Positions 21,532-45,583 of a DNA stretch of 64,000 nt are shown here, piece by piece. How positions within the stretch are numbered: position 1 is the stretch's first letter; each line of letters starts with the position of its first letter. The DNA is from Raja brachyura (taxonomy: Eukaryota): NCBI GenBank assembly GCA_963514005.1, contig OY740813.1, positions 8,928,001 through 8,992,000 on the forward strand. Direction: 5' to 3'. The notes below the pieces were generated by a model, which worked only from the letters and a program-made list of their open reading frames with translations, made no database searches and was not told the DNA's origin. The position numbers and the translations under genes are program-made.

Positions 21532-22169
21532 TATATCACTCTACATCATCATCCATATCTCTAGTTTCCTTTTCCCGTGACTTTCAGTCTGAAGAAGGGT
21601 CTCGACCCGAAACGTCACCCACTCCTTCTCTCCAGAGATACTCCCTGTCCCACTGTTACCCCAGCATTTTGTGTCTATCTTCGGTTTAAACCAGCATCTG
21701 CAATTCCTTCCTACACTCTCACCTGGAGGTTCCCCTTAAAGTTACACATTGACCTGTCTTGGTAATCTATCACAATTTCTTCATTGTTCATCCAGGAAAT
21801 CTCTACCCAATAGTCTCATGAGAGTATTTTCGCAATAAGGGCTGAAGTGGTCTAAGAAGGCTGCTCATCATCATCTTCTCAAGTGTAGTTAGGATGAACA
21901 ATAATTGTTGATCTTGCAAACAAATCCTATATCCTGAAAATGAATTCAGGTCAAGTTTATTATCATATGCACTAGTATGATAAGGTACAGGTACAATGAA
22001 AATCTTGTTTGCAGTACCTTCACAGGCACATAGCCTCACACGGCATACAACATATAAATTCTGCATAAATGTTGCATAAAGAATAAAACAAGACATTTGT
22101 GCAAAACAGAATTCGAAACAAAAGTTCTTAGTAGTGCAAGAAGTGTTCCCAAGTGCTCCATTATATAAG

Positions 22170-22393
22170 TGTTAAAGAAGGAACTGCAGATGCTGGAGAA
22201 TCGAGGGTTACACAAAAAGCTGGAGAAACTCAGCGGGTGCAGCAGCATCTAAGGAGCGAAGGAGATAGGCGACGTTTCGGGTCGAGACCCTTCTTCAGAC
22301 TGAAGAAGGGTCTCGACCCGAAATGTCGCCTATCTCCTTCGCTCCTTAGATGCTGCTGCACCCGCTGAGTTTCTCCAGCTTTTTGTGTAACCC
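22170..22393. mobile_element. Fold-back PLE-end mini-element
   Basis: ~94-bp inverted arms (one mismatch) around A22299. TSD CTCCATTATATAAG at 22156-22169 and 22393-22406. Confidence 0.9.
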
Positions 22394-23157
22394 TCCATTA
22401 TATAAGGTTGGATTAGGGTTGTGCAGGTTGGTTCAAGAATCTGATGGTTGTAGAAAAATAGCTGTTCCTTAAGACGTCTTTAGTGACTTTAGACGTCTGC
22501 ACCTACCCATCGGAAGGTGACATGAGCCTCGTAATGATAGATACCGTCTTCCTTGACGCAGCACTTCATGTAGATGCTTTTATGATTGGGGGGACTGTGC
22601 TCCTCCTGATGGACTGAACTGAGTACTTATTTTAACATGTTTGCATATATTGGTGGCATTTACTATAGATAAATACTATTTTTCATCGACATGCAATTAG
22701 AAAGAGGAGCTGTTGCTATTTTTTTCCCATATGCATTCCAAGGCCACAGAAAATAGCTCCAACCGCCTAGTTGCAACTAGTGGATAACAGACAAGAAATT
22801 AGACTCACCACATCTTAAAAATAGTTGTTTTTCAAATTGAAAAACTGTAACCAGTGGTGCTGCATCCTGTATTGTTCACCATATACATTAATGGTTCGAA
22901 AGAGAAAGTGAGTGGTTTGATGTTAGTGACCTTATCAGGACGAAATAATGAGAACACAGGAATACAATAAATTTAGTAAATTTCCTCCATCTCTGTGCTC
23001 TTCTGATTCCAGTTACTTGCACATCCCTATTTTCTTCCTCTCATCATTAGTGACTCGGCCTTCTATTCTCCTGGCATTCTCTCCCCAAATCTCTCCACCT
23101 CTATATTAATTGTCCTTTATGAGGTGCTACATTTTGACCAGATTAACCTGTCCTAAT

Positions 23158-23365
23158 GTAGAAACAAGGAACTGCAGATGCTGGTTTACGCAAAAGGAGA
23201 CAAAGTGCTGAAGTAAATCAGCGATCAGGCAGCATCTCTAGAGAGCATGGGTTGGTGAAGGTTCTGTGTCAGGGTCCTTCTTTGGACTGATAGTAGGGAA
23301 GGGAGAGAAAGTTGGAAGAGAAGAGAGGCAGGACAAAGTGTGGCAGGTAATAGGTGCACACAGGC
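23158..23365 (-). repeat. PLE pLTR fragment; related pieces at ~2255-2350, 10455-10620, 11008-11180, 11424-11810, 31350-31405, 50668-50790, 57197-57320, 59795-60012 and 62715-62806
   Basis: Recurring GGAACTGCAGATGCTGG...GCTGGAGTAACTCAGCGGG...CAGCATCT...GTTTCGGGTCGAGACCCTTCTTCAGAC motif. Confidence 0.75.
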
Positions 23366-26300
23366 AAAGATCTGCCCTAATATGCCTTTTGCCTGTGAGG
23401 CAAAATGTGACTTTTTATTTATTATGTTGAAGAAAGTAAATAAATGCAAGTTGTCTTTCTGTCAGTGGAGATACAATCATAAACCCAGCAATGTAAGAGT
23501 CAAGAATCAAGAGTGTTTTATTGTCATATGTCCCAGATAGGACAATGAAATTCTTACTTGCGGCAGCACAACAGAACATGTAAACATAGTACACAATGGG
23601 AGAAAAAGAAAGTTCAGAGTGTGTATATGCATACATTCACACATACTCAATAAATAAACAAATATAGTGCAATAACAATAATGGTCTGTTATATTTCAGA
23701 GCCTATTTGCTGTTGTGTTTAATAGCCTGATGGCTTTATGGAAGAAGTTGTTCCTGAGCCTGGTCATTATAGTTTTCAGGCTCCTGTACCTTCTTCCCGA
23801 TGGCAACAGTGAAATGAGTGTGTGGCCAGGATGGTGTGGGTCTTTGATGCTGTTGGTGATGTTTACAACAATCATACCATTTTAGTTATGCTAATACAAC
23901 TCCATCACATTTTCCTGTATTAAAACTTTTCTTACAAAGAACAGTTCAGCCGTTGCACATGTGAATAATGTTCTTAAATTAACATGACTCCTGCACACTT
24001 TATACCCATTCTGGCTTTTATGCAGATCAGTTTTGCAATATTTAAAAACAATATTTATCAACCATTCTTGAAGTCTAAGGTATTAACTTGCAAAGAAAAA
24101 GCAGCAAAACAACGCACAAAGACTATGAATAACAATTAGTCAAAAGGCAGCTGAATGTCAAAAAATAGTTTCAACAGTTCTAGTAGTTTATATAATCAGA
24201 AATTTAAATTCTGAGCTCGTTTTGCCAGAAACTATATATGATGCCTACAAATTTTCTCTAAATAAAATGAAGTAAATTTTATATTGCTCTTTCTATAATT
24301 ATTTATTTAAGTTTCCTATTATTTAATTATGGATTCATTGTACACTTGGCTGACTCTCACACAGTTAACCTCACCTCTGTATTTTTTACTTTTCTTCTCC
24401 TATGGTTCAGACTCTTTCTCATTCTCGCTCTTTCTCTGCCTACAACTATCCCTTTTGCTGTCTTCAATGTATTCCCTCCAAATGAGCCTTCTAAAACTAA
24501 ATATGCAAAACTCTTACTATTTATTACCCCTAGATATTGTCAGATCCCCCCCAAGCTATGAGCTTATTACTCTTTCCTGGACATTAGTGTAATCCTCAGC
24601 CATCTTTTGGGAAAAGCAATCAGATTATAGACTATGTGGAGCTTCTATTAACAGCCATGAGGCATTTTGCTCTCACCTACAATACTAAATGACAATCTTT
24701 CAAATTAAACTTAGCAACTTAGAGAAGGGAATTTCAAAATGTTGAACAGCACTGATCTCCTATATCAGTGGCGGTTATATATTGTCACTAAAAAAGCTTA
24801 TAATAGCAAATTACTTCATATCTTAGATTAGACTACACTTGCAGTGCTCTGAATTGATCCAAGCACCACATCTTAGAAAGGGTAAGTCGCAGAGAATATC
24901 AGGCATAATATTCACCTGAATAATATGTGTACCATGTAAATTAATTTACACAAACTACAGTGACATGTTCAGAATTTCCCACGGTGAAGAGTTGCCATTA
25001 AAGTTTTCAAAACATTAAGAACTAATAAATTAAATAGAGGCCATGAAATGTATCAATTTAAGCTAAATTTGTACTGTTTGAAAGACGTGTCAATTTTGTT
25101 TGATGCCATCTGGACTTCTGTCCAAATGTGCACAATGCAACATGTGAACCTAATGATGTGTTCAGGTAACTGAGCATTAAACACATGGGATCAAGGGTAG
25201 CATGCAAACCACAACTTTGTCTCCACAAGCTTGCAGCCTTCCCCATTGTGACCTAGAGTGGTATTAAATGTCTGGATTGATATGGGTACATTTCTGACAG
25301 CTGTGGAAAGAAAATAGCAATTACGGTGGGTGTTCTGGGCAAGGATTGTGTCAGAGCCCCTCAGATAAAATGCCAGAACATACCTTCAGGAAGGTTAACT
25401 TCAGCACCATCCTAGAGGAACCTTCTCCTCTGGACACTTTGGCAACAGCCAAGTATGGAACAGATTATTCAGTTAATTTGAATTTAGTCACCAGAGTTGT
25501 TTCTGAAATCAAGCATGTGTTTCAATGCCAGCATGTAGAGGTGGGGATGCCGCCAGAGCCCAGCCTGTGCATGCGGAGCAGAACAGACAGCCAACCATAT
25601 CTCTCTGGGTGCCCGCTCTACCACCCACCAAATGGAGCTCAGGGCCTGGCAGACATTGACGCAGAGACAACAACCTGGCTGCTCAACACCCGGCATGAGA
25701 TCTAACTATTCCTTTGGTTTATATTTCATTCGCAAGAAGACCAGTTTACTTCTGAGAATCCCTAGAATGCCACCCATCATGGGTTTCATGCCATTTGATG
25801 TCACTCAAACACACCCATTAGCCTCATTGACAAGATGGACAGCGACGGAATTTCCAGAAACACAAAGTGCAAACACTGCTTTAGATTAAATTCCATCATG
25901 CAATGGATAAAATCCTTCTGACATTTTATAAAATTTCTGGCTCAATGTCACAACATGTTCTGTTGTGCTATGCAAAGAAAGATTTTCATTGTCCTATAAG
26001 GGACACATGACAATAAACTCTTTTGACTTTTTGACTTTTTTGACTTTTCAAATTACTATTGTTAGGGAGTCTAGGATTAGGAGACAATCTAAAAATGAGT
26101 TCAAGGCCTTTCAGGCGGGGTTAGGAAATATTGTTTCATGCAGCGGGTAACAGAAATTTGGAACACATTTCTGTAAATTAGCAACCAACATTAAATCAAC
26201 TGTTAATTTTAAATTGAGATTGATAAAATGTTGTTAACAAGTATTGAAGGGTATTGGGATATGGAGTAAGGTCACATAATTACCTCTGATCATATGGAAT

Positions 26301-27000
26301 GCCTGAACAGATTAGAGGATCTGTGGCCTAGCCCTGTTCCTATGTTTCTGTAGCAAACTGGATCAATATCTCATACCAACCAACTGCATCCAATATGACC
26401 AAAACAAAAAGCATTAACGTCTGCAGGAAATGAAGGTTGTGGTCTAGGATCAGAATCTAAAGGGAACAAATTAATGCAGCGTAGAATGAAATGAACAGAC
26501 AGATCAGGGCCTGGGAAAGCTTTACAGAACACTGCAGAGGGTTTCCGTTCTCTTGAGGAAAGAAGCCTGAGAGATAACATAATAGATTAATATAAAATTA
26601 TGAATGGTTTTGATATAGAAAATATTTCCATTTGTGGGAGAAAAGCATGACTACAGGTTATCTTTACAGTCACCAAGGCATCTTACAAGAAATTCAAAAT
26701 AAATGTCTTTACCCAAAGAGTAATGAGATTCAGTGCTCTACATCCTAAGTAATTTTCTGTGATCATGACAAAGAAGGAGATGGTCCTGAACAGGAACATA
26801 ACTGGGGAGCAAAGAAAGGAATATTTGGGGCAGGAAAGGTTCTCTTACGTTTTTTCCTCCTTAAATACAATTTGATAGAAAGCGTGTATTTGTTTGATGA
26901 AGTTCAGTTCATCTGAGATCCAAGCTCAATCCATTGTCCAATCTACCCGAATATCATACATAACGCTGGATTATCTAGTGTGGTTGAAGGCAGGGGATGA

Positions 27001-27243
27001 CAGAGAGTGGTGAGTCTCTGGAATTCTCTGCCACAGAAGGTAGTTGAGGCCAGTTCATTGGCTATATTTAAGAGGGCGTTAGATGTGGCACTTGTGGCTA
27101 AAGGGATCAGGGGGTATGGAGAGAAGGCAGGTACGGGATACTGAGTTGGATGATCAGCCATGATCACATTGAATGGCGGTGCAGGCTCGAAGGGCCGAAT
27201 GGCCTACTCCTGCACCTATTTTCTATGTTTCTATGTTTCTATG
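27001..27243 (+). mobile_element. CR1 LINE 3' fragment
   Basis: RVVSLWNSLPQK-type end and a (CTATGTTT)n tail. Confidence 0.88.
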
Positions 27244-27885
27244 AGACGGTTCCAGTGGTAAATGATCAAATAAGTTAAGTCTAAGCAACAATCCATCTGA
27301 CATCCAAGACCCTAGTGAGGGCAAAAGGGACTAATGCCTACCTGCTTCCAGCTTCCCAAACTGCCTTGATTCTACTTTCCCTTTTAGCCCAATGGGTGCA
27401 AGCAGGTATTTCTTAAAACACAGCAGTGACTTCCCTTCATAAAGCCTTTGTGACTTCCCCAACTGGCAACAGACTTTTAAGATATCAGAAAAGTCCAACC
27501 AGAAGGTACTTTTTTTCTTGAAAATAAAAGCCTGGACCTGTAAAATGTCTAAAATTATAAATGTAATGCAGCAGTTGTAGAAAAAAAGTATATTTACTAT
27601 TATGAGGAAACAAAACCTAGAGGGCATAAATAGACGCCAACAATCTAATAAATTTAGGAGAACCTATTTTACCCAAATAGATAATAACACAAGCCTTCCC
27701 TGGGAAATTCCCTCTATGCGTTTTTATTGTACAGAGAGATTTCTTGTGCATGGTTGTGTTGCAAGGATCAGTTCCAGAAAAAATATTTTTAATAAGCATT
27801 TAGTGCACTCCCAAACCCACTGAACAAGTTTCTGTTTGATATAAAAACTGTGGAAATTCTGAATTTCTGTTCCAGCAGTTCAAGA

Positions 27886-28218
27886 GACAATAGGCAATAG
27901 GTGCAGGAGTGGGCCATTCGGCTCCTCGAGCCAGCACCACCATTCAATATGATCATGGCTGATCATCCACAATCAGTACCCCTTTCCTACCTTCTCCCCA
28001 TATCCCTTGACTGCTATCTTTAAGAGCTTTGTCAAGTTCTCTCTTGAAAGCATCCAAAGAACCAGCTTCCATTGCCCTCTGCGGCAGAGAATTCCACAGA
28101 CTCACAACTCTCTGTGTGAAAAAGTTTTTCCTCATCTCCGTTCAAAATGGCTTACGCCTTATTCTTAAACTGTGGCCCCTGGTTCTGGACTCCCCCAACA
28201 TCGGGAACATGTTTCCTA
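27886..28218 (-). mobile_element. CR1 LINE 3' fragment
   Basis: MRKNFFTQRVVSLWNSLPQR on the minus strand. Confidence 0.88.
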
Positions 28219-28921
28219 CAGTTCCTGAACCTAAACCTATACTTAAGCCAAGACTTCTGCATTTATTACGGTTCTCCTGTGATTTGTTGCAGTTCTCTTC
28301 AAAATTGGCTATTCACTCCAATTTGGCATTATCCACAATTTTCAGTTGTTTTTGATTCCAAAGTCTAAATCATAAATGTAAGTGATCCCAGCACTACGTT
28401 TTATGGAACAGCAATATCCAATTTCTCCCAACACAGTTTTCTTTACTCATATTCTCTGCTTTAGGTCTTGAAGCCAGTTAGCTATCTTTTATATTAGTTA
28501 TCTCCCAGGCTCTGCATTCTCTGATCTTATTCGTTAGTCTTGAATTAATTTGGGTTGTCTTCATATCATTGCCTATTTCCACTGTCGCTTTGGAAATCCA
28601 TACTGACCATGATTATACTTTTCTTTTCTGTCTGTTTTATTTTCTCCTTTAATGGCAATTCTGTTATTTTTCCTATCCCAGTATTAAATTGACTGGTCTA
28701 TTATTGCCAAGAAATGTCCTCGTCCCCTTCTTCAATATAGATATTATATCAACTATCTGCCAGAGTCAATGTAAGTCAGCAAGCTAAAAGTGATGGGATT
28801 CAGGCAGTACAAATTTGAATGAGATCAAGTTTACATGAAATGGGAGATAAATGATCAACCAAGAGCCAAAAGTCTGGAGATTACAAAGATAATGAGAAAG
28901 AAATAGACACCTCAAGGTTGA

Positions 28922-29447
28922 GGTTGTGTTTAACAAGGGTTGTGTCACACACAAGGGTTTACACACAAGGCTTGTGTTTACCAAGGGCTGTGTTTACCAA
29001 GGGCTGTGTTAGGGTTGTGTTTACCAAGGGCTGTGTTTACCCAGGGCTGTGTTTACCAAGGGCTGTGTTTACCAAGGGCTGTGTTTACCAAGGGCTGTGT
29101 TAGGGTTGTGTTTACCAAGGGCTGTGTTTACCCAGGGCTGTGTTTACCCAGGGCTGTGTTTACCAAGGGCTGTGTTTACCAAGGGTTGTGTTTACCTGGG
29201 GTTGTGTTTACCAAGGGTTGTGTTTACCAAGGGTTGTGTTTACCATGGGTTGTGTTTACCTGGGGTTGTGTTAGGGCTGTGTTTACCAAGGGTTGTGTTT
29301 ACCATGGGTTGTGTTTACCGTGGGTTGTGTTAGGGCTGTGTTTACCAAGGGTTGTGTTTACCAAGGGTTGTGTTTACCAAGAGTTGTGTTTACCATGGGT
29401 TGTGTTTACCATGGGCTGTGTTTACCAAGCACAAACACAACCCTTGG
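28922..29447 (+). repeat. 16-bp minisatellite GGGYTGTGTTTACCAA with interspersed 11-bp units
   Basis: By hand count, ~26 full units and 4 short units (GGGYTGTGTTA), followed by one inverted partial unit. Confidence 0.95.
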
Positions 29448-30699
29448 AAAGAGAAACAGTTAATGTCTCACCTTCAGAAATCTTCGTCGGAACTGGGAAA
29501 GAGAAAGAAACAAATTACTTTTCAATAGCAGATAGAAAAGGATAGAACAAAATCAGTTTCTCTGATAGGGTGAGACCAAATAAATTAATGTTACACTACC
29601 GGTTGGATAAATATGTGTGAACTGGAGGCACATGATGAATCTGCAGCTGCTGCAATCTAGACTAAACGACTGCTGGAGGAGTTCAATGGGTCGAGCAGCG
29701 TCTTACTGTGGTTGGAAAGGCCTGACGCAGGAACAAAACCTGAAACGTCGATCCTTCCCTCCACAGACGCTGCTCGACCTCCAGCATTCGTTCTTTTATG
29801 TACACGTGTATGAACTAAATGGGCCGAATGGCCTGTTGTGGGGGTTATAGATTTTATTTGATGTAAAATGGATTAATCCAACTCATAATCTTCTGAGTGA
29901 AGGTAAGGATTGAATTCATGAGGTGGAAGTTTTCAAATGTTGGCCCTCGCTCGGCGTTACTTTTCTATTAAATTATAAATGAGGTGGGAAGGTTAATTCA
30001 CCCAGAGCCGAGGTGTTTTCCCCCTGCAAATCAGAGGCCAAATGTGCACATTTACAATATTCATCAACATTGCATTTTTATCTCCAGATACCTGCTCTCT
30101 GGCGGTTTTTACTTGGGGGTTTCCTCATGTTTTAAGGAGAATTTTTCTCTTTTTCCGCTAATTATTTGAATTTCAGCGCCTTCGCAGAGGCAGCTCATGA
30201 TGACTTTCCCGCCCTGATCGCGGCACCGGCCGAGCGTCCGCGAGGTCCTAGCGCCCGCCACCGCGTTGACAGTTGGACCCGGGATCCCGCGGGTCCTAGC
30301 AACCACCGGATCGCCCTTCATTCACAGCACTGCGCGCTACATTTATGCTGCACATCTTATCGCACGCTGATGTCTTAAAGCGTCGACCTGATGAGAATCT
30401 GTTGGATTCTTGTGCCTGCTCCTGCATCAACAGCTGTACCGAGCCAGCCTCGTTAACTAGCAGCGGCAATCATGAGTACTAAAACGCTCGGGCGCCTACG
30501 TAATATGTAAAATAATATGTGATTCTGTTTGTAGTTTGTTTGTTTTTTTGCACAAAGTCCGCGAGCATTGCAACGTGTCCTTTCACTGCACATCTCGTAT
30601 GTGTATGTGACGAATAAACTTGACTTGACATTGCATGGTATGGGTGCAAACCCTCAGCAAGTCCATGTTTGGCGACCACTTTATATACCAACCGCAAAC

Positions 30700-31090
30700 T
30701 GACACAAAAAGCTGGAGTAACTCAGCGGGGCAGGCAGCATCTGGAGAGAAGGAATGGGTGACGTTTCGGGTCGAGACCTTTCTTCAGTCTGGGACTAGTT
30801 TGAATAGGGCATCTTGGTCAGTGTGGATGGATAGGGCCAAAGGGACTTTATCCATGCTGTATCTCAACAACGCCACATAAATAATTTTCATTGTGTTCAA
30901 CAAGGATGTTGCTGGTTGTCCTTAATATCTCAAGATAACATAATAATTCTCTTCAGTCTGAAGAAGGGTCTCGACCTGAAACGTCACCCATTCCTTCTCT
31001 CCAGAGATGCTGCCTGTCCTGCTGAGTTACTCCAGCTTTTTGTGTCTATCTTTGGATTTAAACCAGCATCTGCAGTTGCTTCTTACACAC
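30700..31090. mobile_element. Fold-back PLE-end element (second subfamily) split at its centre by a ~155-bp insert
   Basis: Left arm 30700-30790 and right arm ~30949-31090 are inverted copies of one another. Confidence 0.8.
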
Positions 31091-32404
31091 AAACTGACTT
31101 TTGTGAGTTTTGCACCCAAATTTGACTGCACTACACAATCCCTCCAACTACTTATGCCGAATGGTTGTTGGGCCAGAGGTCTCCCAAACGTCCATCGTAT
31201 AATTTAGTTTTGGCACTAAACTGTGCAAAAACTTGACTCAGTGCTGATACTGGTACCTCCTAAGTACCATGCAACTCAGACTCAAAAGCATTCCAGTTAT
31301 ATTGCACATAGTCTTTTTTCCAGGGCAGGGGAATCAAGAACTAGTTAGTTCTCCAGAGATGCTGTCTGACCCACTGAGTTACTCCAGCTTTTTGTGTCTA
31401 TCTTCTAGTTAGTTAGCTTATTGTTACGTGAACAGAGAGCATGCTATCCGGTCAAATGGTACTAAACACGAGTACAATAGATCATCTTCTGAAACAAAGT
31501 ACAGGTTTAAAATGAGAGAGGAAACATTCAATGGGAACTCGAGGGGCAACTTTTTCATATAGTGGGTGATGGGTATATGAAACGAAGAAGTAATTGAGGC
31601 TGGTTCAATACAACATTTAAAAGACATTTGGGCAGGTACATGGATAGGAAAGGTTTAGAGGGATAAGGGGTAGGCACAGGATAATGGGACTAGCTTGAAT
31701 ATGGCATCTTGGTCAGTATGGATGGATATGGCCAAAGGCTCTTTTTCCATGCTGTATGACAACAACTCTACATAAATAATTTTCATTATGTTCAGCAAAG
31801 ATGTTGCCGGTTGACCTTAATATCTCAAGATAACTTAATTTAATGCAGATGCTATAAATCTGAAATAAATACAGAAAATGCTGAAGCCACTCAGCATCTG
31901 TAAGAGAGAAAGCATGTTCAATGTTTGAGGTCAAAAATTCTTTGTCAACAACAACTTTCCTGATTCTGAAAGTTGTTACCAGTTCTTAGCCTCTCTGGTC
32001 AGCCTGTTCCTGCTAATATTTACCCATCAGTCCATTCCTGGCATTCAGTGGAAATCGCTTTAGTTAAAAGTTGTGCCTTGCTGAAATTTAATTAATGCTA
32101 GCATTGAATGAGCTTGCAAAACCAGTCAAATGTACTTCTCTTTGAAAATCAAAATAGCTGGGAATCTAAAGTCAAAACAGAAAATGCACAGCTGGTCAGG
32201 ACTCATCTGTGGGATTTAAACAGAGTTAAAGTTTCAGGTTTATGCTATGACTCTCTTTGCCCAGTTAAACTTGATTTAATTTATCATGTTCTCCAAACAT
32301 TGCAGCAGCCAACACATATATAACAGCAGAAGATGCAGGAGTGGGACATTTAGACCCTCCATTGTGGCGGATCTTTCCACTTCCCTGAACTAACTGAATA
32401 CCTT

Positions 32405-32458
32405 GGTGTGGGAGATTGCAACCTTCACGTGGTCCACACTGTTTCGACGAATGCAATC
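32405..32458 (+). ncRNA. Minimal HDV/CPEB3-like self-cleaving ribozyme
   Basis: P1 GGTGTGG/CCACACT with a G1-U wobble, P2 GATTGCA/TGCAATC, P3 ACC/GGT, L3 TTCACGT, a tiny P4 around a TTCG loop, and J4/2 A-C-GAA with the candidate catalytic C at 32448. Confidence 0.85.
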
Positions 32459-32543
32459 AACCTGGCGTGCACAAACAGAAGATCAAACAGAACAAGTTGT
32501 CTTACAACTTTAAGCTGTGCACGCCACATGCTAGAAGAAGAAG
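32405..32543 (+). mobile_element. Short non-autonomous retroelement headed by an HDV-like ribozyme, with a (GAA)n tail; copy 1
   Basis: 12-bp TSD ACTGAATAC(C/T)TT at 32393-32404 and 32544-32555. It ends in GTGCACGCCACATGCTAGAAGAAGAAG. A homologous copy lies at 45584-45724. Confidence 0.85.
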
Positions 32544-35500
32544 ACTGAATACTTTGATTCCTTTAATATCAAAAAATCTCTTAGTTACTCCCTTGAACAT
32601 TCTCAGCAATGCAGCCTACACACCCCTCTTAGGGAAAGAATTTCAAAGATTCATTACCCTCTGAGCAAATAATTTTTTTCTCATCTCTGTCTTGACTGAC
32701 CCATCATTATTTTAAGGCCCCTGTGATCCCCAGGTTTCAGGGAAATATAATTCTGGAATCGACCATCGTAAATCTCATAATGTTCCAAAATGTTGTAAGG
32801 AAAAATGCAGCAGTTTAATCTTACAAAAGATGATTCAAAAAAAAATTGGAAAAAGCAATAGGACTGGTGGAAATCTAACATTTTATTTAAGAACTAAAGT
32901 CAATAGCAGGAAAATACTTGAATGTTTAGCCAAATATATATAAAAAACACACCAAGAAGCTGAAAATATAATAGAGAGTAATAATCACAGATTCCAAAGG
33001 GAAAAATCTAGTGCAGGCAGTCTTACTGAATTTTTGAAAGAAGTATCAGAAAGTATAAGGGTTATGCAGTAATTGTATATATATATGGATAAAATGGCAC
33101 ATAGTACACTCTCGTATGTAAGATTGTAAATTCTATAATCAAAGAAAAAACTAGAGAACATATCGAGGAACTGCAGATGCTAGTTTACACAAAAGGACAT
33201 TTCATCACTAGAAAATACATCAAGCTGGCTATAATACTGAAAACATGCTTGTCCAACAGTTCAAAGACAGTTACTCAGTTGGCAAAAGGCGGGAAATGGT
33301 ATTACAAGGGAATCTTGGTCCACTGTAAATTACTTTAAATAGGATATCAAAAGTAAAACTTTAGATTATACAATTAAAATATTAAGAAGCGACCGTGTTG
33401 GGAATTGTGTTTTATTCAGAAGACTTCAACAAATTGCAGGGGAAATATGAAAGATCTTTCTGAAATAGTGTCAAATTGGCAAATGTAACTTCTGTATAGA
33501 ACAGATACAACAGACAAAGACAAAGCATTTTGGTTGGCACAATTACAGAAACCTTATGAAAAATGAGTGTCTACATAGGTAAGGAGGGACAGATATGCAA
33601 ATAATTAAAGTTAGCCACACAGATTAATTATACCATAAAATACAGGATAGAATTGAAGATCAGAAAAATTATGTGAAACTACACATTAAGCATGTAAATG
33701 GTTCTGGTCATTTGGATTATAAAAGGACACAAAAATGCAAGAAAAAGTGAAAAGAGATTAAATGGAAATATAAAAGTTTAGCTAATAGAAACCAGGTTGA
33801 ATGGGCTTGAGGAAAGTGAGGAATGAGTGCGACATGATGAAGACTTTAAGGTTATGAAAGTGTTGGTTATGGTAGACGCAGAAACGTTTTCATATAAGCA
33901 AGGCTAGAACTATGGGTCATGAATATAAAATATGAAATAGTTACTAACAAATCTCATGGGAAGTCAGGAGAAAATCTTTTACTAGAATGTTTATTAATTG
34001 TGGAGGTGACAATAATAAGGGGTAGTTGAAGTAAATAAGGTGATATATTTAAAGAAAACAAAATAAACATATCAGAAAGAAAAGCATATGAAGATATAAT
34101 GGTGATGTGGCTAAAAATGGGTAATGGGAATCGCAAGTATTCACATATGTATCGCAAGTTTTGGACTCATTGAGCCACACAATTGTGCTTTAAATGGCAT
34201 GTTCTAGTTAGTCCACAAAATTATATTCTTTCTAAAGGTTTTAGGACCTTAACAAAGGAGAGAATAGTAGAAAGATACATGGCATGGTGGAGGTGGCAGG
34301 GATATATAGAGCTTACAACCTGGGCAGTTTATGAAAAAGCTTCCAAATGAAATAATAAGGACATTTGTGGGAGGCCAGAAATGTACATTTCAAAAGATTA
34401 TGGGGCTGGAGGAAGTTACAGCGAAAGGGATTGGCAAAAGACAAGGAGTGATTTGAAATCAAAATAAGAATTTTAAACTCAAAGCATTGACAAACAATGT
34501 AGGTCAATAAACTCAGGGGTAAGGTTGAAATGGGAATTGATGCAAATTAGAATACAAGCTACATAGCTTTCTACGTTAAAGTTTGTGGAGAGTGTGAAAT
34601 TAGGACACCAGACAACATAGTATTGGATAGAAAATGTGGAAATTATAGGGAATATTGATCAAATTATTGAGATACTGTTCCCTCTTGTAATGGTGTGGCT
34701 GAACATGACATAGTTTAAGATAATTTGCAACAACACTCAGAGGGAAAAATAAGATCATTTCAGTCAACAAATTGTCATGATCCATGATTTATTGTTTGAA
34801 AGGGTGTAGTAGCTGATTCAAACATATCTTTCAAATGAGAATGGGATAAATGCTCAGAAAGTCATTTGCGGGGCAAGAGAGAGGGAATTGGAATTAATTG
34901 GGTAGTTCCTTCAAAGAACCAGTACAAGCACAATGGTCCATATTATCTCCTAGTGTGCTGTACAATTCCATGATGCTGCAATACCAAATGGCCACTTGGA
35001 CATGCCTCCAAAGGTCACTGAAACCCCTCGGAAATCATACTCAAGCATAATTTACCAGCTCAAGGAAAGATGGCTGTTGTTAGGGATGGGGGAGGTGAAA
35101 ATGTGAAGGGAATAAAAATATTTTTAGAAGAAAAAACATCAAAAAGTTCAGGAATCTGAAATATTCATGAAGAAAAATGTTTGATTTGCAGTGAGGAAGT
35201 AACAATCCGCAGAAGAAATTTTCACTGCACATGTAATGCACAGTAAGATATATCGGCACAATCGGGAGATTGGGAGCCCAGAGACTAACGGCATTCAAAG
35301 AGCCCAAGCAAATTGATGGAGCTGCATTTCAGTTCAACACAGATTAATAACAAGTTATGAGCCAGGTATGGTAAATGTCAAAGGTGAACACATGATGGTA
35401 TACATGAGTAAAAAAGGTAAAAAGGAAATATATCTGATTATTATTCACTCATTATGTGCATCTCATTCACATTAAATTGTTATCAGCCAGACTGAGTAGT

Positions 35501-36129
35501 AACTAGAATGCCTATCATGAGCAATTCTTAACTGGGTCAGATTTGCATTATTATTTGCAGAAGGCTGCATAGCTTCAAAAGGATGTTGATAGCACTGACT
35601 GAATGCAGAAATTCGTCTTCTTCGCAGTCCTTCAGAATTAAAGTAGACTTTCTTACACTGAGGTTCCTAACCAATGTGGGACCCTTAATCACTGCCGCAG
35701 GTGAAGTAGGTGACAGGAAGTATGCAGGTGGTTTGAGAATGGGTGGACTCTTTGCACCAACCCCACTGATTTTCTGAGTGGTCTTAACATGTGGTCTTTA
35801 TGTTCTTAATGTGTTTCCGAATGCCCTTTATGTTACGTGGCCACGGGCTAAAGATTCCCACAAGTCAGTGGGGATATTACATTTTTTCAAGGAAGCTTTG
35901 AAAAATCCTTAAAATGTAACATTTGTACTCAGGTAATTCTCTTGCCATGACAATGTTCAGAATAGGCTATCTGTTTCAAGAATACGGTATCAGGCAAACA
36001 ATGTGGCTCGTGGGAACCTCTTGAGTTTTGGGCCTGAAAATGTCACTGATGTTGGTTTGCTTATTCTACCAGTGTATTTGGATGATTTTGCAGATATACG
36101 ATTGATGGTACCACCCATTGATGGTATCT

Positions 36130-36425
36130 CTGTGTGGAACCAAAGAACTGCAGATGCTGTTTGACACAAAATGACACAAAGAGTTGGGGATGTTGCCAGT
36201 GTACGACTGAGACAAGGACTGTTCGACATAACCGATGAAAAGGCGGGCATAGCTGGAGCTGATGCAAGACCCCATAGCAACCATGCATTGTTCTCCCAGC
36301 TATTTTCACACTCCCTCCCCTATAATCAGTTTGAAGAAGGGCCCTGACCCAAAACATCACCTATCAATCTTCACCAGAAATGCTGCCTGACCCGCTGAGT
36401 TATTCCAACACTTTGTGTTCATTTG
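36130..36425. mobile_element. Rearranged PLE fragment
   Basis: A minus-strand RT piece VAMGSCISSSYARLFIGYVEQSL lies between inverted pLTR ends. Confidence 0.7.
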
Positions 36426-39400
36426 GTGGTGTCTCTCCAGTGCTTTGAGGTGCCTGGTGGAATTAATCCACATCTCAGAAGTATACAGCAGGAGAGGGGT
36501 CCATGTTCCCCACTAGACGGTGCACTTTATATCAGTTTGGAGGTTCAACACTTTATTCCTCAGACTCCCATTGGTGAATTTCATCATCAGTATCTACCTT
36601 GAATGTGGGGAGTCTTCACAGATATAAGAGGTAGTCCATCTTTCCCAGGATCTTATTATGGATTATCTACTGTCTAATGGCAGTGTTTATTTTATGGATG
36701 AAAAGTGTGAAGTCCATGTTCTCTCGTGCTGCAGTAAAAGAGTCATCAACTTGGAGCTTCTTCTCAAAAGGTGCACATGAGCAAGTGTGATCTAGGTGAA
36801 ACAACTTACAGGCAAGGTTGAAGTGACCTTGGTATTGGAGTGGAGGCAACAAGAGATGAACATTTCCCATTTGTCCTGTAGATTAGTTCCACTCCAGCCA
36901 GAAGCTTGAAGTAGCTTACAGCATTGCAGCAAGTAAGATTGAGAAAGGTTTTGGAATGGTGACGCAGCCCTGCTTGATGCCAGTTCGCACAAGATTGGGT
37001 CTGTGGTGGATTATTAGACTAAGATCACAGCTTGGACGCCATCACGAAGCAAACACGAGACACAGATGAAAATTTTGCAAACGCCACAAATGAGGAAGAT
37101 GCTAAACAATCTTATTTGATTGCTTCTGTGAAGTGCAAAAATGCCATGTAAAGAAATTACATTTATATTTTCAACACTAAAACTAGGGATATACTCCACA
37201 TGAGCTGACTTCTGCGATACTTCAGCTAATTTTGTCAACATTCTTTAAAACGATTAAGAATCAATTAAAAATGTTATGTTTTGAGTTAAGGATCATAAGA
37301 TCTTTTAAGAAAAAGAAAAGGTTGATAAACCTTTTCATCTTCTCAAAATACCTCTCAATCTTTTCTATCTCAACTCAATTGCTTCTATAATGCTTTTAAA
37401 CTGCCTGATGTGATATACTCCCCTGTTAACATATTCCACAAGTTGTTTAAACTTTAGATGAAAATCTTTGCTTGATACATTATTCAACTAACTTCTTCGT
37501 GTTAAGTGAATCCCTATTGTATATAAACTCTTCAGTTTAGGAATATTGCATGGTCACTTCTGTTAACCTTTTCTTAAATGTAAGTCAGTTCACCATAAAT
37601 GCTCCATTTTCACATCACAAAAAGGGCAAACCCTATAAAAATCTTTACTGATTATTTTATCTGAGGTCTCTTTCTATTTCTCATCTACATGTTTTCCAGG
37701 TATTCACAGTAATCTTATCATCACATCTCTGCATTGTCTTAAATATGTTACACTACTTATCGAATGTCCAACTGGGATGTGTTAAAGTTTCCCACAAAAA
37801 TAAAATACTAAATTTAAAGAAGACTGAAACAATTTATTCTACCCCAAACCTTATTCCTTAACCTCCATTCCTATCCCAGGGTGTGAGAAGGGGGTGCAAG
37901 AATGAATGAATAAGTTTATTGGCCAAGTATTCACATACAGCGAATTTGCCTTGGTGCTCCGCCCACAAATGACAACATGATATACAGTGACAGTTAGGAA
38001 TGACGCATAAAACATTAAACATTAATAATAAAACATTATCAAGCAGAGATACCCTGCCACATCTTACCAAATAACCATTCAAAAATGTACATAAACATTT
38101 GCCCCATAAATTGCCCATACAAATGCTTAACATTTTAAATTCCTGTACACACACAACTCCTATAAAGAGGCTTAAAACATTTCATTATATTAGAAATGGT
38201 ATTGAAAATCAAGTTGTTGCTGTTCTGACTTGTTTTCTTTCGAAAAGTGGATAAAGGAAGGACATAGCTTGTCATTAATGTACTTTTCTTCAATTGTATA
38301 GTAAACCACAGGATATATTAGGTTTTTCTTAATGCACAAGAATAACCAAATTGAAAAGCCCCAAAAGAGCATAGCAATTAATGGTTTACTTAACCAAGAA
38401 TTAATATTTATCCATAATAAAGCATTACCAAAAGGACTAAAAATGAATTGGATCGTTTCCACAGTTCAGAGCTCCAAAACATTGGTCAGGACTTTCAGTG
38501 CATTTTACAACAACAAGGTACAGTTGAATTGCAGCCACCATTATGGGAAACATGGCAGCCAGGTTATGCACAAATCCCCTTCCTTTCCCTTCTGTCTTCT
38601 TGGACTGTCGGTCAACCTCAAGAGAAAATTAGCAAGGAACCTACTCCCAACCATTCAGTAAGAGATGCCAGATGCCCATTGAGTGATCAATTGAATAGCT
38701 CCTCTGCAGTTTGAACATGTTTGTAAATTCAACCATGCAGCAAAGATTGTGAACTGAGGCAGATGAAGTTAACCCTGCATATCATATCCATGTTCCCTCT
38801 TCAGGTGCCGTGAATGGTGGAACTTGACAATGAGTCTTCACCAACTGTTCAGTTGTGCACAGCAAAACATGATCCGGTCTTTGCTAACGGGTGCAAACAT
38901 ACTGTAGGAACCATTTATGTTGAGGCTAGCTTCTGTTAGCATATTATATTATTTTGTCTAGATATATCTTGGACACTTGGGGGCGGCCATTAGATGCACA
39001 GAGTGGCGTATATATATGGGCATAGGGGCCAGGAAGTGACAGACACAGGGAGGGAAAGCATACAGTTCTCACCAGACCAATACCTGGTACGTTCATCTCT
39101 TTGTTTGTACAACTACTTCAATAAACAACCAATTAAACTGGAAATAATTACTGGAAGATCTGTTCAATTTGGTCTGCGTAAGATCACTCCTACTTACCTG
39201 TGTAACAATGGCAACTGGGAAAGAGGTCACTGGCTAAGTTGGAAATTTGCCATTACACAGAGAGAGTTACACACTGATTCATACGCTTAAACAAACAAAG
39301 TACTGATATGTTTGGTTTGGTTGATTATTGTGTACTCTGAGATACAGTAAAAAATGTTGTGTGCTGTCCAGTTGAACCATACCATACATTAATACAATCA

Positions 39401-40955
39401 AGCCATACACAAGAACAACAGGAAATGCAAAATAGAAAATACCAGAATGCAGTGTTATGGTGTTACCATTACAGGGACAAAGTTACAATTACAAAGAAAG
39501 TACAAATTAAAAAGAAGTACAATATCCACAATGAGCTAGGTTGCAATATCAGGATTACATCCTAGCTTAAGAAAGGATGTAAAGAGACAAGTTTACAATT
39601 AATAGGATGAGTTTCCATTTGTGCTTGATTTGGATATTACAGCCACTCAACAATTCACTCCGTAAGAACATTATTCGTATTCCTTCTGATTCAGAGTTAG
39701 TCTATTTTCCTTCATTTCAGAATCCATTGCTGCTATGTACTTGTTGCCCTTGACTTTCTAGGGGAATTGCTGCTAAAGAATCCTTGGTAAGTTATTCCAC
39801 TGCATCACATGGATGATGTGCTGCGTCCATAGTGTGCTCGGGGTAGAGGCAGTGCATCAAGTCAGCTACATTGTTTTGGATGGTGTCAAGCTTCTTGAGT
39901 GTTATTGCAGCTGCACTTTATCAGGGAAGAGAAAATCATTCCATCGCACTCCTAGCTTGTGCTTTATAGATGGTTTAAGGAGGTAGGAGATGAATCCATT
40001 ATGAAGGGAGTAGTAGCAAAACCAGCGTGGTTTTATAAAAGGAATATCATGTTTGTCAATCTTATTGGAATTCTTTGAGGATGAAATGAGGAATGGGAAA
40101 TTAAATGAGAAATGGAAGCTAGTAAATACAGTATATTTTCATTTCTAAAAGGCATTTCATATTGTAACACATAAAATGTACACGGGATGTAAGGACATAG
40201 GCTTATGTAAAATGTATAAGAATATGGATAATGGATTGGCCAACTAATGGAAAACGGAAATAAAAACAGAAATTGCAGGAAACACTCAGAACGTCCAGCA
40301 GCGTCTGTGGAAAGAGAACCAGTTAACATTTTAAGTCTTGAACCTTTCATCAGATGACGGGCACTGAACCTGAAGCATTAATTATTTCTCTTTCCACAGG
40401 ATGCTGCCCGACCCGCAGTGTACTTCCAGTATTTTCCAGTATCATTGCATGGCATTTATGCTCCACAAAGATAATGTGCTGCTTCCCAGCCCGTGCCTGA
40501 ATATTATTCAAGTCTTGCTATAAGCAGACTCAGATTGATTCATTATGTGAACAGTTGAGAGAGGAACCAAACTCTGCAACTCTGCCCTATCATTTTTCAT
40601 AGCAAGAAGATCATTTATGAAGCAGCAAAAAGTGGCTGGAATAAGATCTGTGTTAAGGGACTCCTGGAGCAATGTTCTTGAGTTGAGATGATCTGGGGTT
40701 GAAATTATTAATCTCCATCAACCACATTCATTTCCCATTGTGCCGGGTATAGATCCAGTAATTTGAGACTTTCGTTCCCAATTAAATTAGTTCAATTTTA
40801 ATTTGGGCTTCTTGATATCATACTCAGTGAAATGCTGCCTCAAGGACAGAGACTTCTTCCTCTCCTCTGTAATTCAGCTCCCTATCTATATTTTGGACCA
40901 AGGCTGCCCAGTAGCATTGTTGCAGAGTCTTCCTTTCATATTACTAATAATATTG

Positions 40956-41537
40956 GAGGGTAGCTAATGTTATCCCACTCTTCAAGAAAAGAGGGAGAGA
41001 GAAAGCAGGGAATTATAGACCAGTTAGCCTGACATCCGTGGTGTGGGGAAGATGCTGGAGTCGATTATCAAAGATGTAATAGCGGCGTATTTGGATAGCA
41101 GTAAAATGATCGGTACAAGTCAGCATGGATTTACGAAGGGGAAATCAAGCTTGACAAATCTTTTGGAGTTTTTTGAGGATGTAACAAGTAAAATGGGCAA
41201 GGGCGAACCAGTGGATGTAGTGTACCTGGACTTTCAGAGAGCCTTTGATAAGGTCCCACACAGGAGATTAGTGGGCAAAATTAGAGCACATAGTATTGGA
41301 GGTAGGGTATTGACTTGGATAAAAAATTGGTTGGCAGACAGGAAGCAAAGAGTAGTGATTCATTGGATACATTCAAAAGAGAGTTAGATAATGTTCAAGG
41401 CTAGCGGAAACCAGGGGTATGGGGAGAAGGCAGGAACGGGGTACTGATTGTGGATGATCAGCTATGATCACATTGAATGGCGGTTCCGGCACGGAGGGCC
41501 GAATGCCCTACTCCTGCACCTATTGTCTATGTATCTA
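40956..41537 (+). mobile_element. CR1 LINE fragment with a large internal deletion
   Basis: RT NYRPVSLTS...QHGFTKGKS...YLDFQRAFDKVPH joined directly to the 3' UTR at ~41358. Confidence 0.88.
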
Positions 41538-42185
41538 TGGATCTTTTTATAATTATGTGCAGAATTTGTCATTATAATTTTAAACTCAATTCCACTAATC
41601 AGTCTAATGTTCTACTAGAAAGCAAACGTAACTAGTGAATTTGTCTTATGTTGGGGCAGGATATTATTATTTGCCCCTGGTTTGATCAAGGCTTCCTCAG
41701 GTTTATACAGGTGAAGTTCTAAGATGCATCATCAGTTATCTGGGTGCACAACGAGCCCTTATCCTGTTCAGTGTTGTCCACATGCTCCAGGGCATATTGA
41801 AGCTCAGTTGCCCAGGTGTTGAATAAGTTGGAAGGTATTTGTAAAGAGATTTTCTGGTGAAGCTTTCCTCCAGTTGTTGTGGAGCATGAAGTGCCCTCAA
41901 AAGGGTTTCTGAACCTGTGACATGTGTTCATCTGGCAGGTTCTTGAAGGTTGCTGTGAAAGGAAGGCCTGAATAGCTTTTTCTATGACTTGCGACATTGT
42001 TCATCTCATCTCATAGGAGACAACAACCTGGCTGCTCAACACCTGGCTTGAGATCCAACTATTCCTTTGGTTTATGTTTCATTCACAAGAGGAAGATAGG
42101 AGAGTGATATTTGAAAGAACTACTAATCACTGATCTGGAACTTATTTACATGCCTTATCTTTGGTGGTAGGGAGGGAAATTTAAT

Positions 42186-42409
42186 TGTTAAAGAAGGAAC
42201 TGCAGATGCTGGAGAATCGAGGGTTACACAAAAAGCTGGAGAAACTCAGCGGGTGCAGCAGCATCTAAGGAGCGAAGGAGATAGGCGACGTTTCGGGTCG
42301 AGACCCTTCTTCAGACTGAAGAAGGGTCTCGACCCGAAACGTCGCCTATCTCCTTCGCTCCTTAGATGCTGCTGCACCCGCTGAGTTTCTCCAGCTTTTT
42401 GTGTAACCC
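42186..42409. mobile_element. Fold-back PLE-end mini-element
   Basis: Perfect 94-bp inverted arms around A42315. TSD AGGGAAATTTAATTGT at 42173-42188 and 42410-42425, partly overlapping the element end. Confidence 0.9.
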
Positions 42410-43557
42410 AGGGAAATTTAATTGTAGTATTCAAAGGAAGCTGCATAAGAATCTGAAATAAAAAATAAAACTGCAAGGCTACATGAAGAGGTACAATGAA
42501 GTGACAATAGTTGGATAGTTCTTAATAAAGCCAGTACAAATGCCATGGAAATCTTTCCGTGCCATATTGATTCTGTAATTCTGTATCTTTCTACCTGGGT
42601 TTTCAACCCCCATTAGTTTTGAAGCAGCTGATCAAGTCACTGAGGACATCCAGTGTGATTGTGATAAAAGTTATATATTCCTTCCCTTCCATCCTGACCT
42701 CTGTTCTGCCCTTGACATGTTTGGCCATGTTGAATGCCCCTTGCTGGTTATCCAGCTGATCTCAGGGACATGCCCGGGCAAAGTCAAAGACAGATACTCA
42801 CCTACAATGGCTTCTCTTCCATTATCCATACTATTACCCCTGGTAACTCTTAAATAATCCATCCTTAATGCCCCTCCTATTTCCCATTCAGTGCTATTGC
42901 CTGGCAACATCATTTGAAGACAAAGTTTGCTAACATCCAGTTCTACTACACCACCACTTTGTTTGACCCAACATTATCTGACTGGCGCATTCAACACTCA
43001 TTGTGCACAGATTTCCTTTCATCCTATCACTATTTCTATTCCCAAACTACTGATTCCAGACAATTTCCTGGCAACTATCTGAAGTTTAACAAGATAGCTG
43101 AAGCTGCAAACCTTAGTGTCTTGTTTGACCCTGAGGTGAACTTTGGTTCACATAGCCTGATTATTATTAAAACCAACCATTTCCACATCTGACATCGCTG
43201 CCTCTATCCTTGCCTCAGCTCATCTGTTCTTGAAAGCTTCTCGTCTGCTTATCTTCTCTTTAGACTTGACTATTCTTGCATATTCCTGGTTAGCCTTGTT
43301 CATTATCTCCTCCATAACTTGATATTATTATGATTGCCTTGCCCTAGAAAACATTGCTTAGTTAAGCAAATTATTCAATTGTTTAATTATTAATCAGGTT
43401 TTGAAATATCTTCATAGCTCATTCCTCTTCAACTTGTGTACCTCTTCCTGACCTGCATCCATCAGAGGATATTCAAAAGGTACAATTTCTTGAATAACTA
43501 ACATTTTACTCACTCCACCATTCCACCATGAATTACTCCAGTGTTCCATAATTGCTC

Positions 43558-43790: not shown

Positions 43791-43973
43791 CAAGGGAGAA
43801 TTAATGGATTGGTGGGCTTGTATGGGAAATAGTCCATTGCAGGGGGATAGGGAAATGAGAAGAAGGAGAATTGGACTAATAGAACACCCTTCGGCTGACA
43901 ATATCTGTGCTGAACATGAGGACAAATTAAATTAATTGTCTGCCTACACTTGAACTAAATACCTTCTTCTTCG

Positions 43974-45221: not shown

Positions 45222-45450
45222 CCCAGACTGCTCCCTTCCCCCCCCCCCCCCACCTCTCCCTCGGGCCCTGACATTCCTTCTCCATCTCCCCCCCCCCCAA
45301 GTCGCACTAGCTTCTCATTTTCACACCAGAAACAGCTTACAATGGCTTGCTCCCTTATCACCAATACTTTTTTGCATATCTTTCACTCATTGTTCTTGCT
45401 TTATCTCTCCATATCACTGTTTATATCTCTCGTTTCCCTGATCCCTGACC

Positions 45451-45485
45451 AGTCTGAAGAAGGGTCTCGACCCGAAACGTCGCCT
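45451..45485 (+). ncRNA. Minimal type I hammerhead-like motif in the PLE pLTR
   Basis: CTGAAGA-A-GGGT(CTCG)ACCC-GAAAC-GTC. Stem III has no loop and is the palindrome ACGT, the arrangement of dimer-requiring PLE hammerheads. Stem I is weak. Confidence 0.65.
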
Positions 45486-45583
45486 ATCTCCTTCGCTCCT
45501 TAGATGCTGCTGCACCCGCTGAGTTTCTCCAGCTTTTTGTGTAACCCTCGATTCTCCAGCATCTGCAGTTCCTTCTTTAACAC

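Follow-up and report, generated by a model that had tools for sequence, protein, structure and literature searches.

We find that the short palindromic insertions in a 64,000-nt window of Raja brachyura DNA (the whole stretch analysed, from contig OY740813.1) represent the known Penelope 'inverted pLTR plus tail' insertion in its most reduced form; they are probably stubs rebuilt at each insertion of a Penelope-like element (PLE), from two cDNAs made on one RNA with starts 35 nt apart. The anatomy of the stubs hints that a single RNA is copied two times by the enzyme, with one copy begun on either side of the broken DNA. The genomic rules that we observe, a near-obligate pairing of long with short arms, a random centre base and genome-unique junctions found on both arms, are better explained by two cDNAs made on a single RNA than by the published self-priming model. 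The element is ordinary, and its family amounts to a large natural experiment on the origin of the inverted and tandem structures and one-sided tail of PLEs, features that PMC8557442 counts as still undefined.

Two such palindromes in the window (22170–22393 and 42186–42409, neither assigned to a strand) are real, at 224 bp each with net target-site duplications (TSDs) of 13–14 bp, and they differ at 1 of 224 positions (22324, GAAACGTC to GAAATGTC). In each, 94-bp arms flank one base (22299; 42315), directly 5' of CTGAAGA, and the long arm exceeds the short arm by 35 bp and matches window 45450–45583, the 3' end of a resident PLE, at 100% identity; the preliminary description had reported the near-identity, the arms, the axis and the match, and all hold. 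The long, tail-bearing pLTR arm of the first insertion (22170–22298, minus strand) faces a short arm on the plus strand (22300–22393), within a 14-bp TSD (22156–22169, plus strand, and 22393–22406), and in the second the long arm (42186–42314, minus) faces the short arm (42316–42409, plus) within a 16-bp TSD that includes 3 bp common to the element (42173–42188, plus, and 42410–42425). The 35-bp asymmetry, at 22170–22204 on the minus strand of the first insertion, is the known PLE 'tail' (PMC11167929; PMC8557442). Minimal hammerhead cores, recognised by eye in the sequence with the motif definition of PMC4209133, lie at 42316–42343 (plus strand; CTGAAGA, an extra A, a 5-bp helix II and GAAACGTC) and in mirror image at 42287–42314 (minus), and correspondingly at 22300–22327, with its one change at 22324, and 22271–22298.

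A third insertion (10702–10890, unstranded) had been described as a copy of the same unit, and is not: a minus-strand short arm (10702–10797) is followed by a 15-nt filler and a plus-strand long arm that lacks its first 50 nt (10813–10890) and therefore carries a single hammerhead core. Its TSD is 11 bp with one mismatch, so that the TSDs do differ among the three insertions, as stated. Genome-wide, counts based on exact sequence patterns give more than 55,000 pLTR matches for the family and 563 matches to the 51-nt axis against 0 for a reversed control, and the palindrome axis is thus not due to chance. Sampled loci are the first matches on three contigs, not random draws. Among these the short-arm end, taken earlier to be invariant, does cluster, with a mode of 94–95, and is not fixed, ranging from ~86 to 98 with a microhomology blur of 0–6 nt; the net TSD is 9–17 bp in 54 of 59 copies. 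Single arms or imperfect joins, the latter with templated or locally copied filler, make up most of the relatives, and beside the perfect axis stand many imperfect junctions. The ORF-less minimal two-armed form is abundant, and it lacks both ORF sequence and the TATA-like box found upstream in the parent. The same axis recurs in older subfamilies, where a sister-subfamily search returned nine old copies, several with damaged arms, in which the long/short rule was loosely checked.

The parent is an EN+ Penelope-like element of a young family, Neptune-type by its linker motif. The 5'-truncated copy at 43973–45582 (plus strand; 12-bp TSD, 43961–43972/45582–45593) retains the C-terminal ~420 aa, with an RT YIDD motif and a C-x4-C-x2-C linker before GIY-YIG, followed by the 3' UTR and a pLTR plus tail; the linker is a Neptune feature common to Nematis in the account given in PMC8557442. 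The full family unit is ~3.98 kb with a single 1,203-aa frame (RT and C-terminal GIY-YIG; L103, L101). RVT_1 and GIY-YIG matches in the parent protein fall below Pfam cut-offs, and the protein has 576 homologues, RVT_1 being annotated on most among the matches listed. The unit opens with the pLTR plus tail, which continues directly into the ORF, and a partial-tandem arrangement forms the pLTRs in L103, L106, L283 and L289. The family shows the optional 30–40 bp tail, ending at +94 or +129; in the parent it occupies 45548–45582 (plus) between two putative RT start sites (~45547 and ~45582). A TATA-like box with a putative promoter role (45420–45426, plus) lies at −31 to −25 from the presumed start A (45451), and CCAGTCT (45449–45455, plus), which we take to be initiator-like by comparison with the Inr consensus, holds a CAG-T-CTG micro-palindrome with the axis T at 45453, where cDNA 5' ends cluster. 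The native hammerhead core (45454–45481, plus; predicted cut after 45481) has a helix I of only 2 bp; the motif in the pLTR was matched by eye to the definition in PMC4209133, and Rfam returned nothing at gathering scores over the window, with chance matches only over the pLTR.

The arms themselves carry the record of assembly. Long and short arms are paired in 65 of 66 classifiable axis loci, with no long/long case, and L099 is short/short and lacks a TSD. The same pairing of a tail-bearing with a tail-less arm holds in 20 of 20 TSD-flanked head-to-head insertions of 186–5,190 bp and in 20 of 20 second-arm remnants, the two sets overlapping. The centre base derives from the long arm in 28 and from the short arm in 31 of 59 copies (p = 0.79), and nine centre-by-haplotype classes occur among these. 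Either arm may reach further 5' (L107 and L113 versus L039 and L111). Variant 42G>A is present on both arms in 16 copies, on neither in 40 and on one in 3 (p = 2e-11); recurrent variants are in general symmetric across arms, and one-arm variants are mostly private. Genome-wide, the L272 junction is present three times and that of L293 twice, in each case confined to the insertion itself and on both of its arms. Such unique junctions could also stem from source loci absent from the assembly.

These patterns weigh on each of the alternatives. The preliminary description proposed a fold-back element that moves as a fixed unit, a master non-autonomous, retrozyme-like parasite transcribed whole and retrotransposed. 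The single difference in 224 bases between the window copies, the 563 exact axis matches and the recurrence of modal ends all suit such an element, which is nevertheless largely refuted and very improbable: the 28:31 split of the centre base, the nine classes, ends that vary and variants shared by both arms in place of inherited asymmetries are not those of a lineage, the perfect axis is just one junction type and appears in older subfamilies too, and neither the TATA-like box nor the ORF sequence needed for PAc binding (PMC11167929) is present in the stubs. A snap-back, in which one cDNA or antisense RNA folds at the palindrome and copies itself into the second arm, builds on the antisense-RNA self-priming proposed by Arkhipova et al. 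2013 (PMC3846280) and accounts for identical haplotypes, for unique junctions on both arms and for a palindrome at the axis. It predicts, however, a centre base taken invariably from the tail-bearing strand, where the observed split is 28:31, and a tail-bearing arm reaching at least as far 5' as the other, which is violated in L107, L113, L035 and L053; it also has to be given a further rule for the copy to end at +94, and leaves the unequal repeat numbers of the L272 arms to be explained, and we regard it as quite unlikely. Somewhat less so, and still unlikely, are two cDNAs made on two RNA molecules from one source locus, where the combination of a long and a short arm would be imposed by an asymmetric dimer. 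Two RNAs would explain the split centre base, and haplotype concordance too if few sources are active at once, and they fit the three position-42 discordances and L195, whose arms come from two subfamilies; the genome-unique both-arm junctions of L272 and L293 would, however, require lost source loci that left no other offspring.

What sets the axis is a separate question, and a two-cDNA assembly whose axis reflects either a halt of the RT related to the ribozyme or a splice acceptor (a pyrimidine tract followed by CAG|T) is about as unlikely as the use of two RNAs. In its favour, the axis lies against hammerhead helix I and is preceded by a pyrimidine tract and CAG, helix I is where the intron of D. 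virilis ends (PMC4209133), and 30 of 100 copies read through the axis. Against it, 48 of 100 copies have 5' ends at −5 to +1 and a single one ends at the predicted hammerhead cut, which leads us to reject a ribozyme-cut origin of the ends. The splice acceptor is rejected because TSDs often lie 0–18 nt from the axis, leaving no room for an exon; the genome contains no match to the element's own donor-to-axis junction, and the single long spacer examined copies DNA ~330 bp away. The axis is better read as the point where cDNAs run off the RNA, and probably as the transcription start rather than a ribozyme effect, because TATA- and Inr-like signals and extra Gs are found there. By hand count, a non-native G precedes the run-off end in 9 of 14 jump junctions as compared to 1 of 8 jumps onto upstream starts; such Gs also occur in 8 of 12 short fillers adjoining TSDs, relatives' contigs show loose ends at the same three bases with a preceding G, and fillers made of an extra G or of an A-run+G are as expected of a real, capped end. 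The G addition may not be cap-specific, since G-rich filler also appears in two of seven internally truncated copies, and in D. virilis Penelope has an internal promoter with no TATA box (PMC2377424), which counts against a TATA-box start. The fixed template-switch point proposed earlier survives as a fixed point from the PLE machinery, and its tie to the ribozyme finds no support. The hammerhead would be a passenger, present because it is located at the RNA start, and the cores on both strands, as previously reported, are there as a trivial consequence of the palindrome. In silico, stub transcripts would indeed form dsRNA hairpins, the full hairpin being predicted at −201 kcal/mol with the cores buried inside; a hairpin between the 5' end and the tail of the native RNA appears in the MFE structure, yet is no better than shuffles (z = −0.91).

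The one-RNA reading can be cast as a sequence of steps. Pol II would start at the Inr-like CAGT, ~30 nt below the TATA-like box, so that the first bases of the capped RNA form the axis, and a dimeric GIY-YIG enzyme would nick both strands ~12–14 bp apart, as the TSDs and PAc biochemistry imply. Both 3' ends would then prime on the same RNA, with one start at the end of the tail (+129) and the other 35 nt inward of it (+94), a two-site pattern that is seen directly and whose chemistry is presumed. Priming on the 5' pLTR would carry the two cDNAs to the RNA start, where they would run off at lengths of 97 and 132 nt, and their 3' ends may meet at CAG-A-CTG, self-complementary with a central A·A mismatch (in general, CAG-W-CTG would be the joining micro-palindrome), where end-joining could retain either centre base. 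Loss of one cDNA would give solo pLTRs, the commoner form, and longer cDNA runs would give kilobase-scale head-to-head insertions. More tentatively, at somewhat less than even confidence, we propose staggered double priming, in which the dimer uses both nicks and a single RNA whose ends are held together or circularised, RT passing repeatedly from its capped 5' end to its trimmed 3' end; if true, one such cycle explains the one-end tail, head-to-head inversions and tandem pLTRs. Three position-42 discordant copies, the chimeric L195 and the short/short L099 count against the one-RNA reading. In its favour, the long arms of L107 and L108 have rare variants in common, with no disagreement at family polymorphisms. 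The native-pLTR 42A is found in 1 of 58, a count biased by how the loci were picked and given no weight here, and skip joints from 1831/1832 to 1983 were set aside as probable cross-subfamily matches. The rules give sharp predictions for the existing PAc in vitro system, and in annotation such palindromes should count as PLE stubs, not MITEs or retrozymes.

In LINE-1 twin priming, cDNA synthesis is primed from both nicks on a single RNA and microhomology joins the two products, leaving an inversion inside the TSD. The stubs likewise hold two opposed cDNAs in one TSD, joined at their 3' ends; L1 cDNAs copy different, adjacent parts of the RNA, whereas here both copy the same part from fixed starts 35 nt apart, and the arms overlap by 94 bp to 1.8 kb. 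Retrozymes and newt satellite 2 are short, non-coding, hammerhead-bearing and mobilised by a retroelement, as are the stubs, and retrozymes are tandem direct units that spread via circular RNA cut at the ribozyme; the stubs, unlike these, are inverted, end at the RNA start and have no lineage of their own, nor the fixed structure of a SINE. MITEs and foldback DNA transposons are, like the stubs, short palindromic interspersed repeats; they have symmetric TIR ends and fixed-length TSDs, in contrast to the variable asymmetric ends and TSDs found here, and the stubs derive from a retroelement.

The closest counterparts are canonical EN+ PLE insertions (Pen2a_Av and others, PMC3846280; Fig. 2 of PMC8557442; D. 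virilis form C, PMC2377424), which share head-to-head pLTRs, a junction palindrome, TSDs, partial tandems and a 30–40 bp tail at one end only. In contrast to those reports, the ORF-less minimum is abundant here and the near-obligate long/short pairing is quantified, and the patterns found here speak against the self-priming model put forward in PMC3846280. PAc (Poseidon, Anolis; Frangieh et al. 2024, PMC11167929) similarly has a pair of internal RT start sites, one on either side of the tail; a predicted dimer, it nicks both strands in vitro and extends them, and it neither needs the hammerhead nor yields RNA ends at the cut. It belongs to a different clade, and that study neither pairs the products of the two strands nor addresses inverted structure. 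It finds no strand difference in start-site use in vitro, which counts against our model. The hammerheads resemble those of metazoan PLEs (Cervera and de la Pena 2014, PMC4209133) in the extra base after A9, the lack of a true helix III, the palindromic ACGU and a short helix I. Opposite-strand hammerhead pairs 100–700 bp apart are noted there; unlike these, the two cores of the stubs are adjacent and fully base-paired together, with a helix I of 2 bp.

We find a single difference over 224 bases between the fold-back copies of the Penelope-like element (PLE) 3' end at 22170-22393 and 42186-42409; as the preliminary description held, they consist of 94-bp arms around a single central base (22299 and 42315, respectively), with one arm extended by a 35-bp tail and a distinct target-site duplication (TSD) for each copy; the assignment of the long arm to a PLE end is borne out by an exact match to 45450-45583. 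A third copy, 10702-10890, had been placed in the same unit and does have the two outer ends in common, but it lacks the first 50 nt of the long arm and carries a 15-nt filler, and is therefore not the same unit. Also in the window, an older-subfamily two-armed copy (30702-31090; short arm minus, long arm plus) has its axis split by ≈160 bp of other DNA with axis sequence repeated on both sides, and at least five fragments of the PLE terminal repeat (pLTR), from three subfamilies and several inverted, cluster within 1.4 kb (10462-11830).

The parent, a young PLE ending near 45583, belongs to a family whose ≈3.98-kb unit is defined by copies retrieved with the ORF of the window and is arranged in partial tandems (L103, L106). 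Its 1,203-aa frame starts directly after the tail, so that the "PLE 3' end" doubles as the beginning of the following unit. The frame has a YIDD reverse transcriptase motif, a C-x4-C-x2-C linker and a GIY-YIG domain (Pfam matches are weak), its best protein match is a bamboo-shark protein (69%), and the linker points to Neptune/Nematis (PMC8557442). Exact matches in the 2.7-Gb genome number 55,173 for pLTR positions 45-80, 30,305 for the family core, 8,779 with native upstream DNA, 597 for tail-ORF junctions and 563 for perfect axes.

The first 70 of these 563 axis matches, not a random draw, represent 69 insertions, since a duplication of one insertion accounts for both L004 and L005. A script classed the 70 as 60 long+short, two short/short and eight other; on inspection, L083, L009, L028, L064, L076 and L081 prove to be long+short pairs altered by indels or small duplications, and L099 has two short arms and no TSD. 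One tail-bearing and one tail-less arm are thus found in 65 of 66 classifiable loci (L013, L063 and L095, unclassifiable, are left out), and long/long in none. Among 59 clean copies, short arms end around 94-95 and long arms around 129-130, with 0-6 nt of microhomology; TSDs are present in 54 (net 9-17 bp, mostly 12-14), and the nick context is A/C-rich and similar at both nicks. The long arm supplies the centre A in 28 and the short arm in 31 (p = 0.79); 42G>A is shared by both arms in 16 copies, absent from both in 40 and confined to one arm in three; and the copies fall into nine centre-by-haplotype classes. The split centre base and the nine classes contradict the earlier proposal that the palindrome moves as a fixed unit and, with older-subfamily folds at the same axis (nine matches), rule out a single master copy. 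The two-armed copies are a real feature, a minimal PLE insertion and not a new mobile element.

Long+short pairing is general beyond these perfect-axis stubs. All 20 TSD-flanked head-to-head insertions counted among loci fetched for other reasons (186-5,190 bp; TSD-less pairs uncounted) combine a tail-bearing with a tail-less end, and five further TSD-flanked insertions follow the same pairing. A second arm is detectable in 20 of 76 TSD-anchored copies, a set that overlaps the head-to-head insertions, and is of the opposite end type in 20/20. Long arms are concordant at family polymorphisms and have rare variants in common (L107, L108). Snap-back, in which a tail-bearing cDNA folds and copies itself, would supply a second arm, but it cannot produce insertions in which either arm reaches further toward the 5' end, and either does, depending on locus. 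In mostly open-access literature, we found no publication stating obligate long+short pairing on one RNA. Two long PLE copies at L144/L145 lie tail-to-tail ≈20 bp apart, one short-ended and one long-ended.

Two loci bear on the template. One arm of L272 holds two copies of a junction from ORF +55 back to pLTR -6 and the other arm holds one, and genome-wide matches are exactly those three; a different junction at L293 is on both arms, with two matches genome-wide and nowhere else. The most economical explanation is that one RNA molecule, which was circular or had its two ends tethered, served as template for both cDNAs; the alternative is a lost source locus that left no other offspring. Identical junctions repeated inside one insertion (L272, with a unit of ≈191 nt, L287 and L293) look like the product of rolling-circle synthesis on a small RNA that is circular or end-joined, and are not at the ribozyme cut.

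The symmetry axis lies just 5' of the hammerhead CTGAAGA. Among the first 100 matches to pLTR 45-80, a non-random sample, 5' ends fall at -5 to +1 in 48, -8 to -6 in three, +2 to +26 in 16 and +32 to +44 in two, and 30 read through into upstream DNA (10 of these assigned from the native-upstream match list). Non-native cores are mostly solo pLTRs in which 0-18 nt separate the axis from a TSD. Counted by hand, the short fillers between axis and TSD end in G in 8 of 12 cases, three being exactly GG, and one of seven fillers at internal truncations ends in G, though GG lies within two of the seven. Many of 30 tail-ORF copies comprise pLTR, tail and 45-140 nt of ORF before jumping back to CAGT; a non-native G, often behind an A-run, precedes the landing point at 9 of 14 such junctions and at one of eight landing further upstream, counts that leave out L277 and junctions landing inside the core. 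In contigs of four public runs from other organisms, loose ends fall on the same three bases as the axis ends, and joints to these bases have a G between. The site reads CCAGTCT, which we take to be an initiator-like motif, with TTTATAT at -31 to -25. From these sequence features we infer that the axis is a capped transcription start. A splice acceptor was considered because a D. virilis intron ends at helix I (PMC4209133), and gained no support from a junction search or spacer analysis. A sequence resembling a splice donor, CAAG|GTATG, coincides in part with the long ORF's first ATG, 30 nt past the tail (L103:2141-2153), and no junction joining it to the axis was found in the genome.

Several minor forms occur at these 5' ends. 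A minor end near -43 behind an A-run and G (L169, L269/L270) is possibly a second start site. At L028, L064, L081 and L009 a second copy of the pLTR's initial 25-37 nt sits next to the axis, linked via G, GG, AGG or AAA, a 5'-end stutter that is not exactly at the hammerhead cut and is near in length to the 35-nt start-site offset; contigs from relatives show the same back-jumps. Most tail-ORF junction copies among L265-L294 break off after 45-140 nt of ORF and continue at a pLTR start, which implies that the template RNAs were short and had their 3' ends a little beyond the tail, some of them with A-runs.

The two-armed insertions combine opposed arms within one TSD, opposite end types, one haplotype, a random centre base and a common 5' stop. 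We propose a dual-priming assembly on an RNA whose capped start, read from sequence in first-match, non-random loci, would lie at CAGT: a dimer would make staggered nicks ≈12-14 bp apart, both would prime on one RNA, at +129 and +94, both cDNAs would run off it, and microhomology-mediated end-joining would unite their self-complementary ends across an A.A mismatch. This scheme fits the imperfect joins whose filler is templated or copied locally (L126-128, L136/L137, L162, L168); at L136/L137 (G000:C1:1207577-1207734, in this genome), the 148-bp inter-arm spacer is a 97% copy of DNA ≈330 bp away, joined through 2-4 nt microhomologies. Evidence against dual priming on one RNA comes from L099, from L195, with arms of two subfamilies, and from three discordant copies. 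At L195 a perfect axis connects two short arms, one of the young and one of an older subfamily.

Hammerhead cores on both strands had been linked either to a retrozyme-like parasite or to a template-switch point tied to the ribozyme. The motif does fit the minimal PLE type (extra A, palindromic ACGU, 2-bp helix I), but the functional tie is not supported, with one of the 100 5' ends at the predicted cut and a computed fold-back transcript (93-bp helix, -201 kcal/mol) that buries both cores; the cores are a by-product. In the minimum free energy fold of 45451-45583, the first bases of the RNA pair with the tail and AGATGCTG pairs with CAGCATCT, but the z-score is only -0.91. L1 twin priming, retrozymes and MITEs are further systems set beside the stubs. 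Opposite-strand hammerhead pairs are already known in PLEs (PMC4209133), and for PAc, an Anolis PLE studied in vitro, PMC11167929 describes two start sites with extension of both strands, cleavage that is not needed and no RNA ends at the cut. The stubs have in common with known PLE insertions an inverted pLTR, a junction palindrome and a one-sided tail (PMC3846280, PMC8557442 and PMC2377424). This population of minimal insertions offers unusually clear pointers to how PLEs integrate.

The young PLE itself is inserted in the terminal (CTT)n run of a 142-bp element (45584-45725) that has its own 14-bp TSD (43954-43967/45726-45739) and a second, inverted copy at 32408-32544. A tandem array of 16-bp period occupies 28920-29458.
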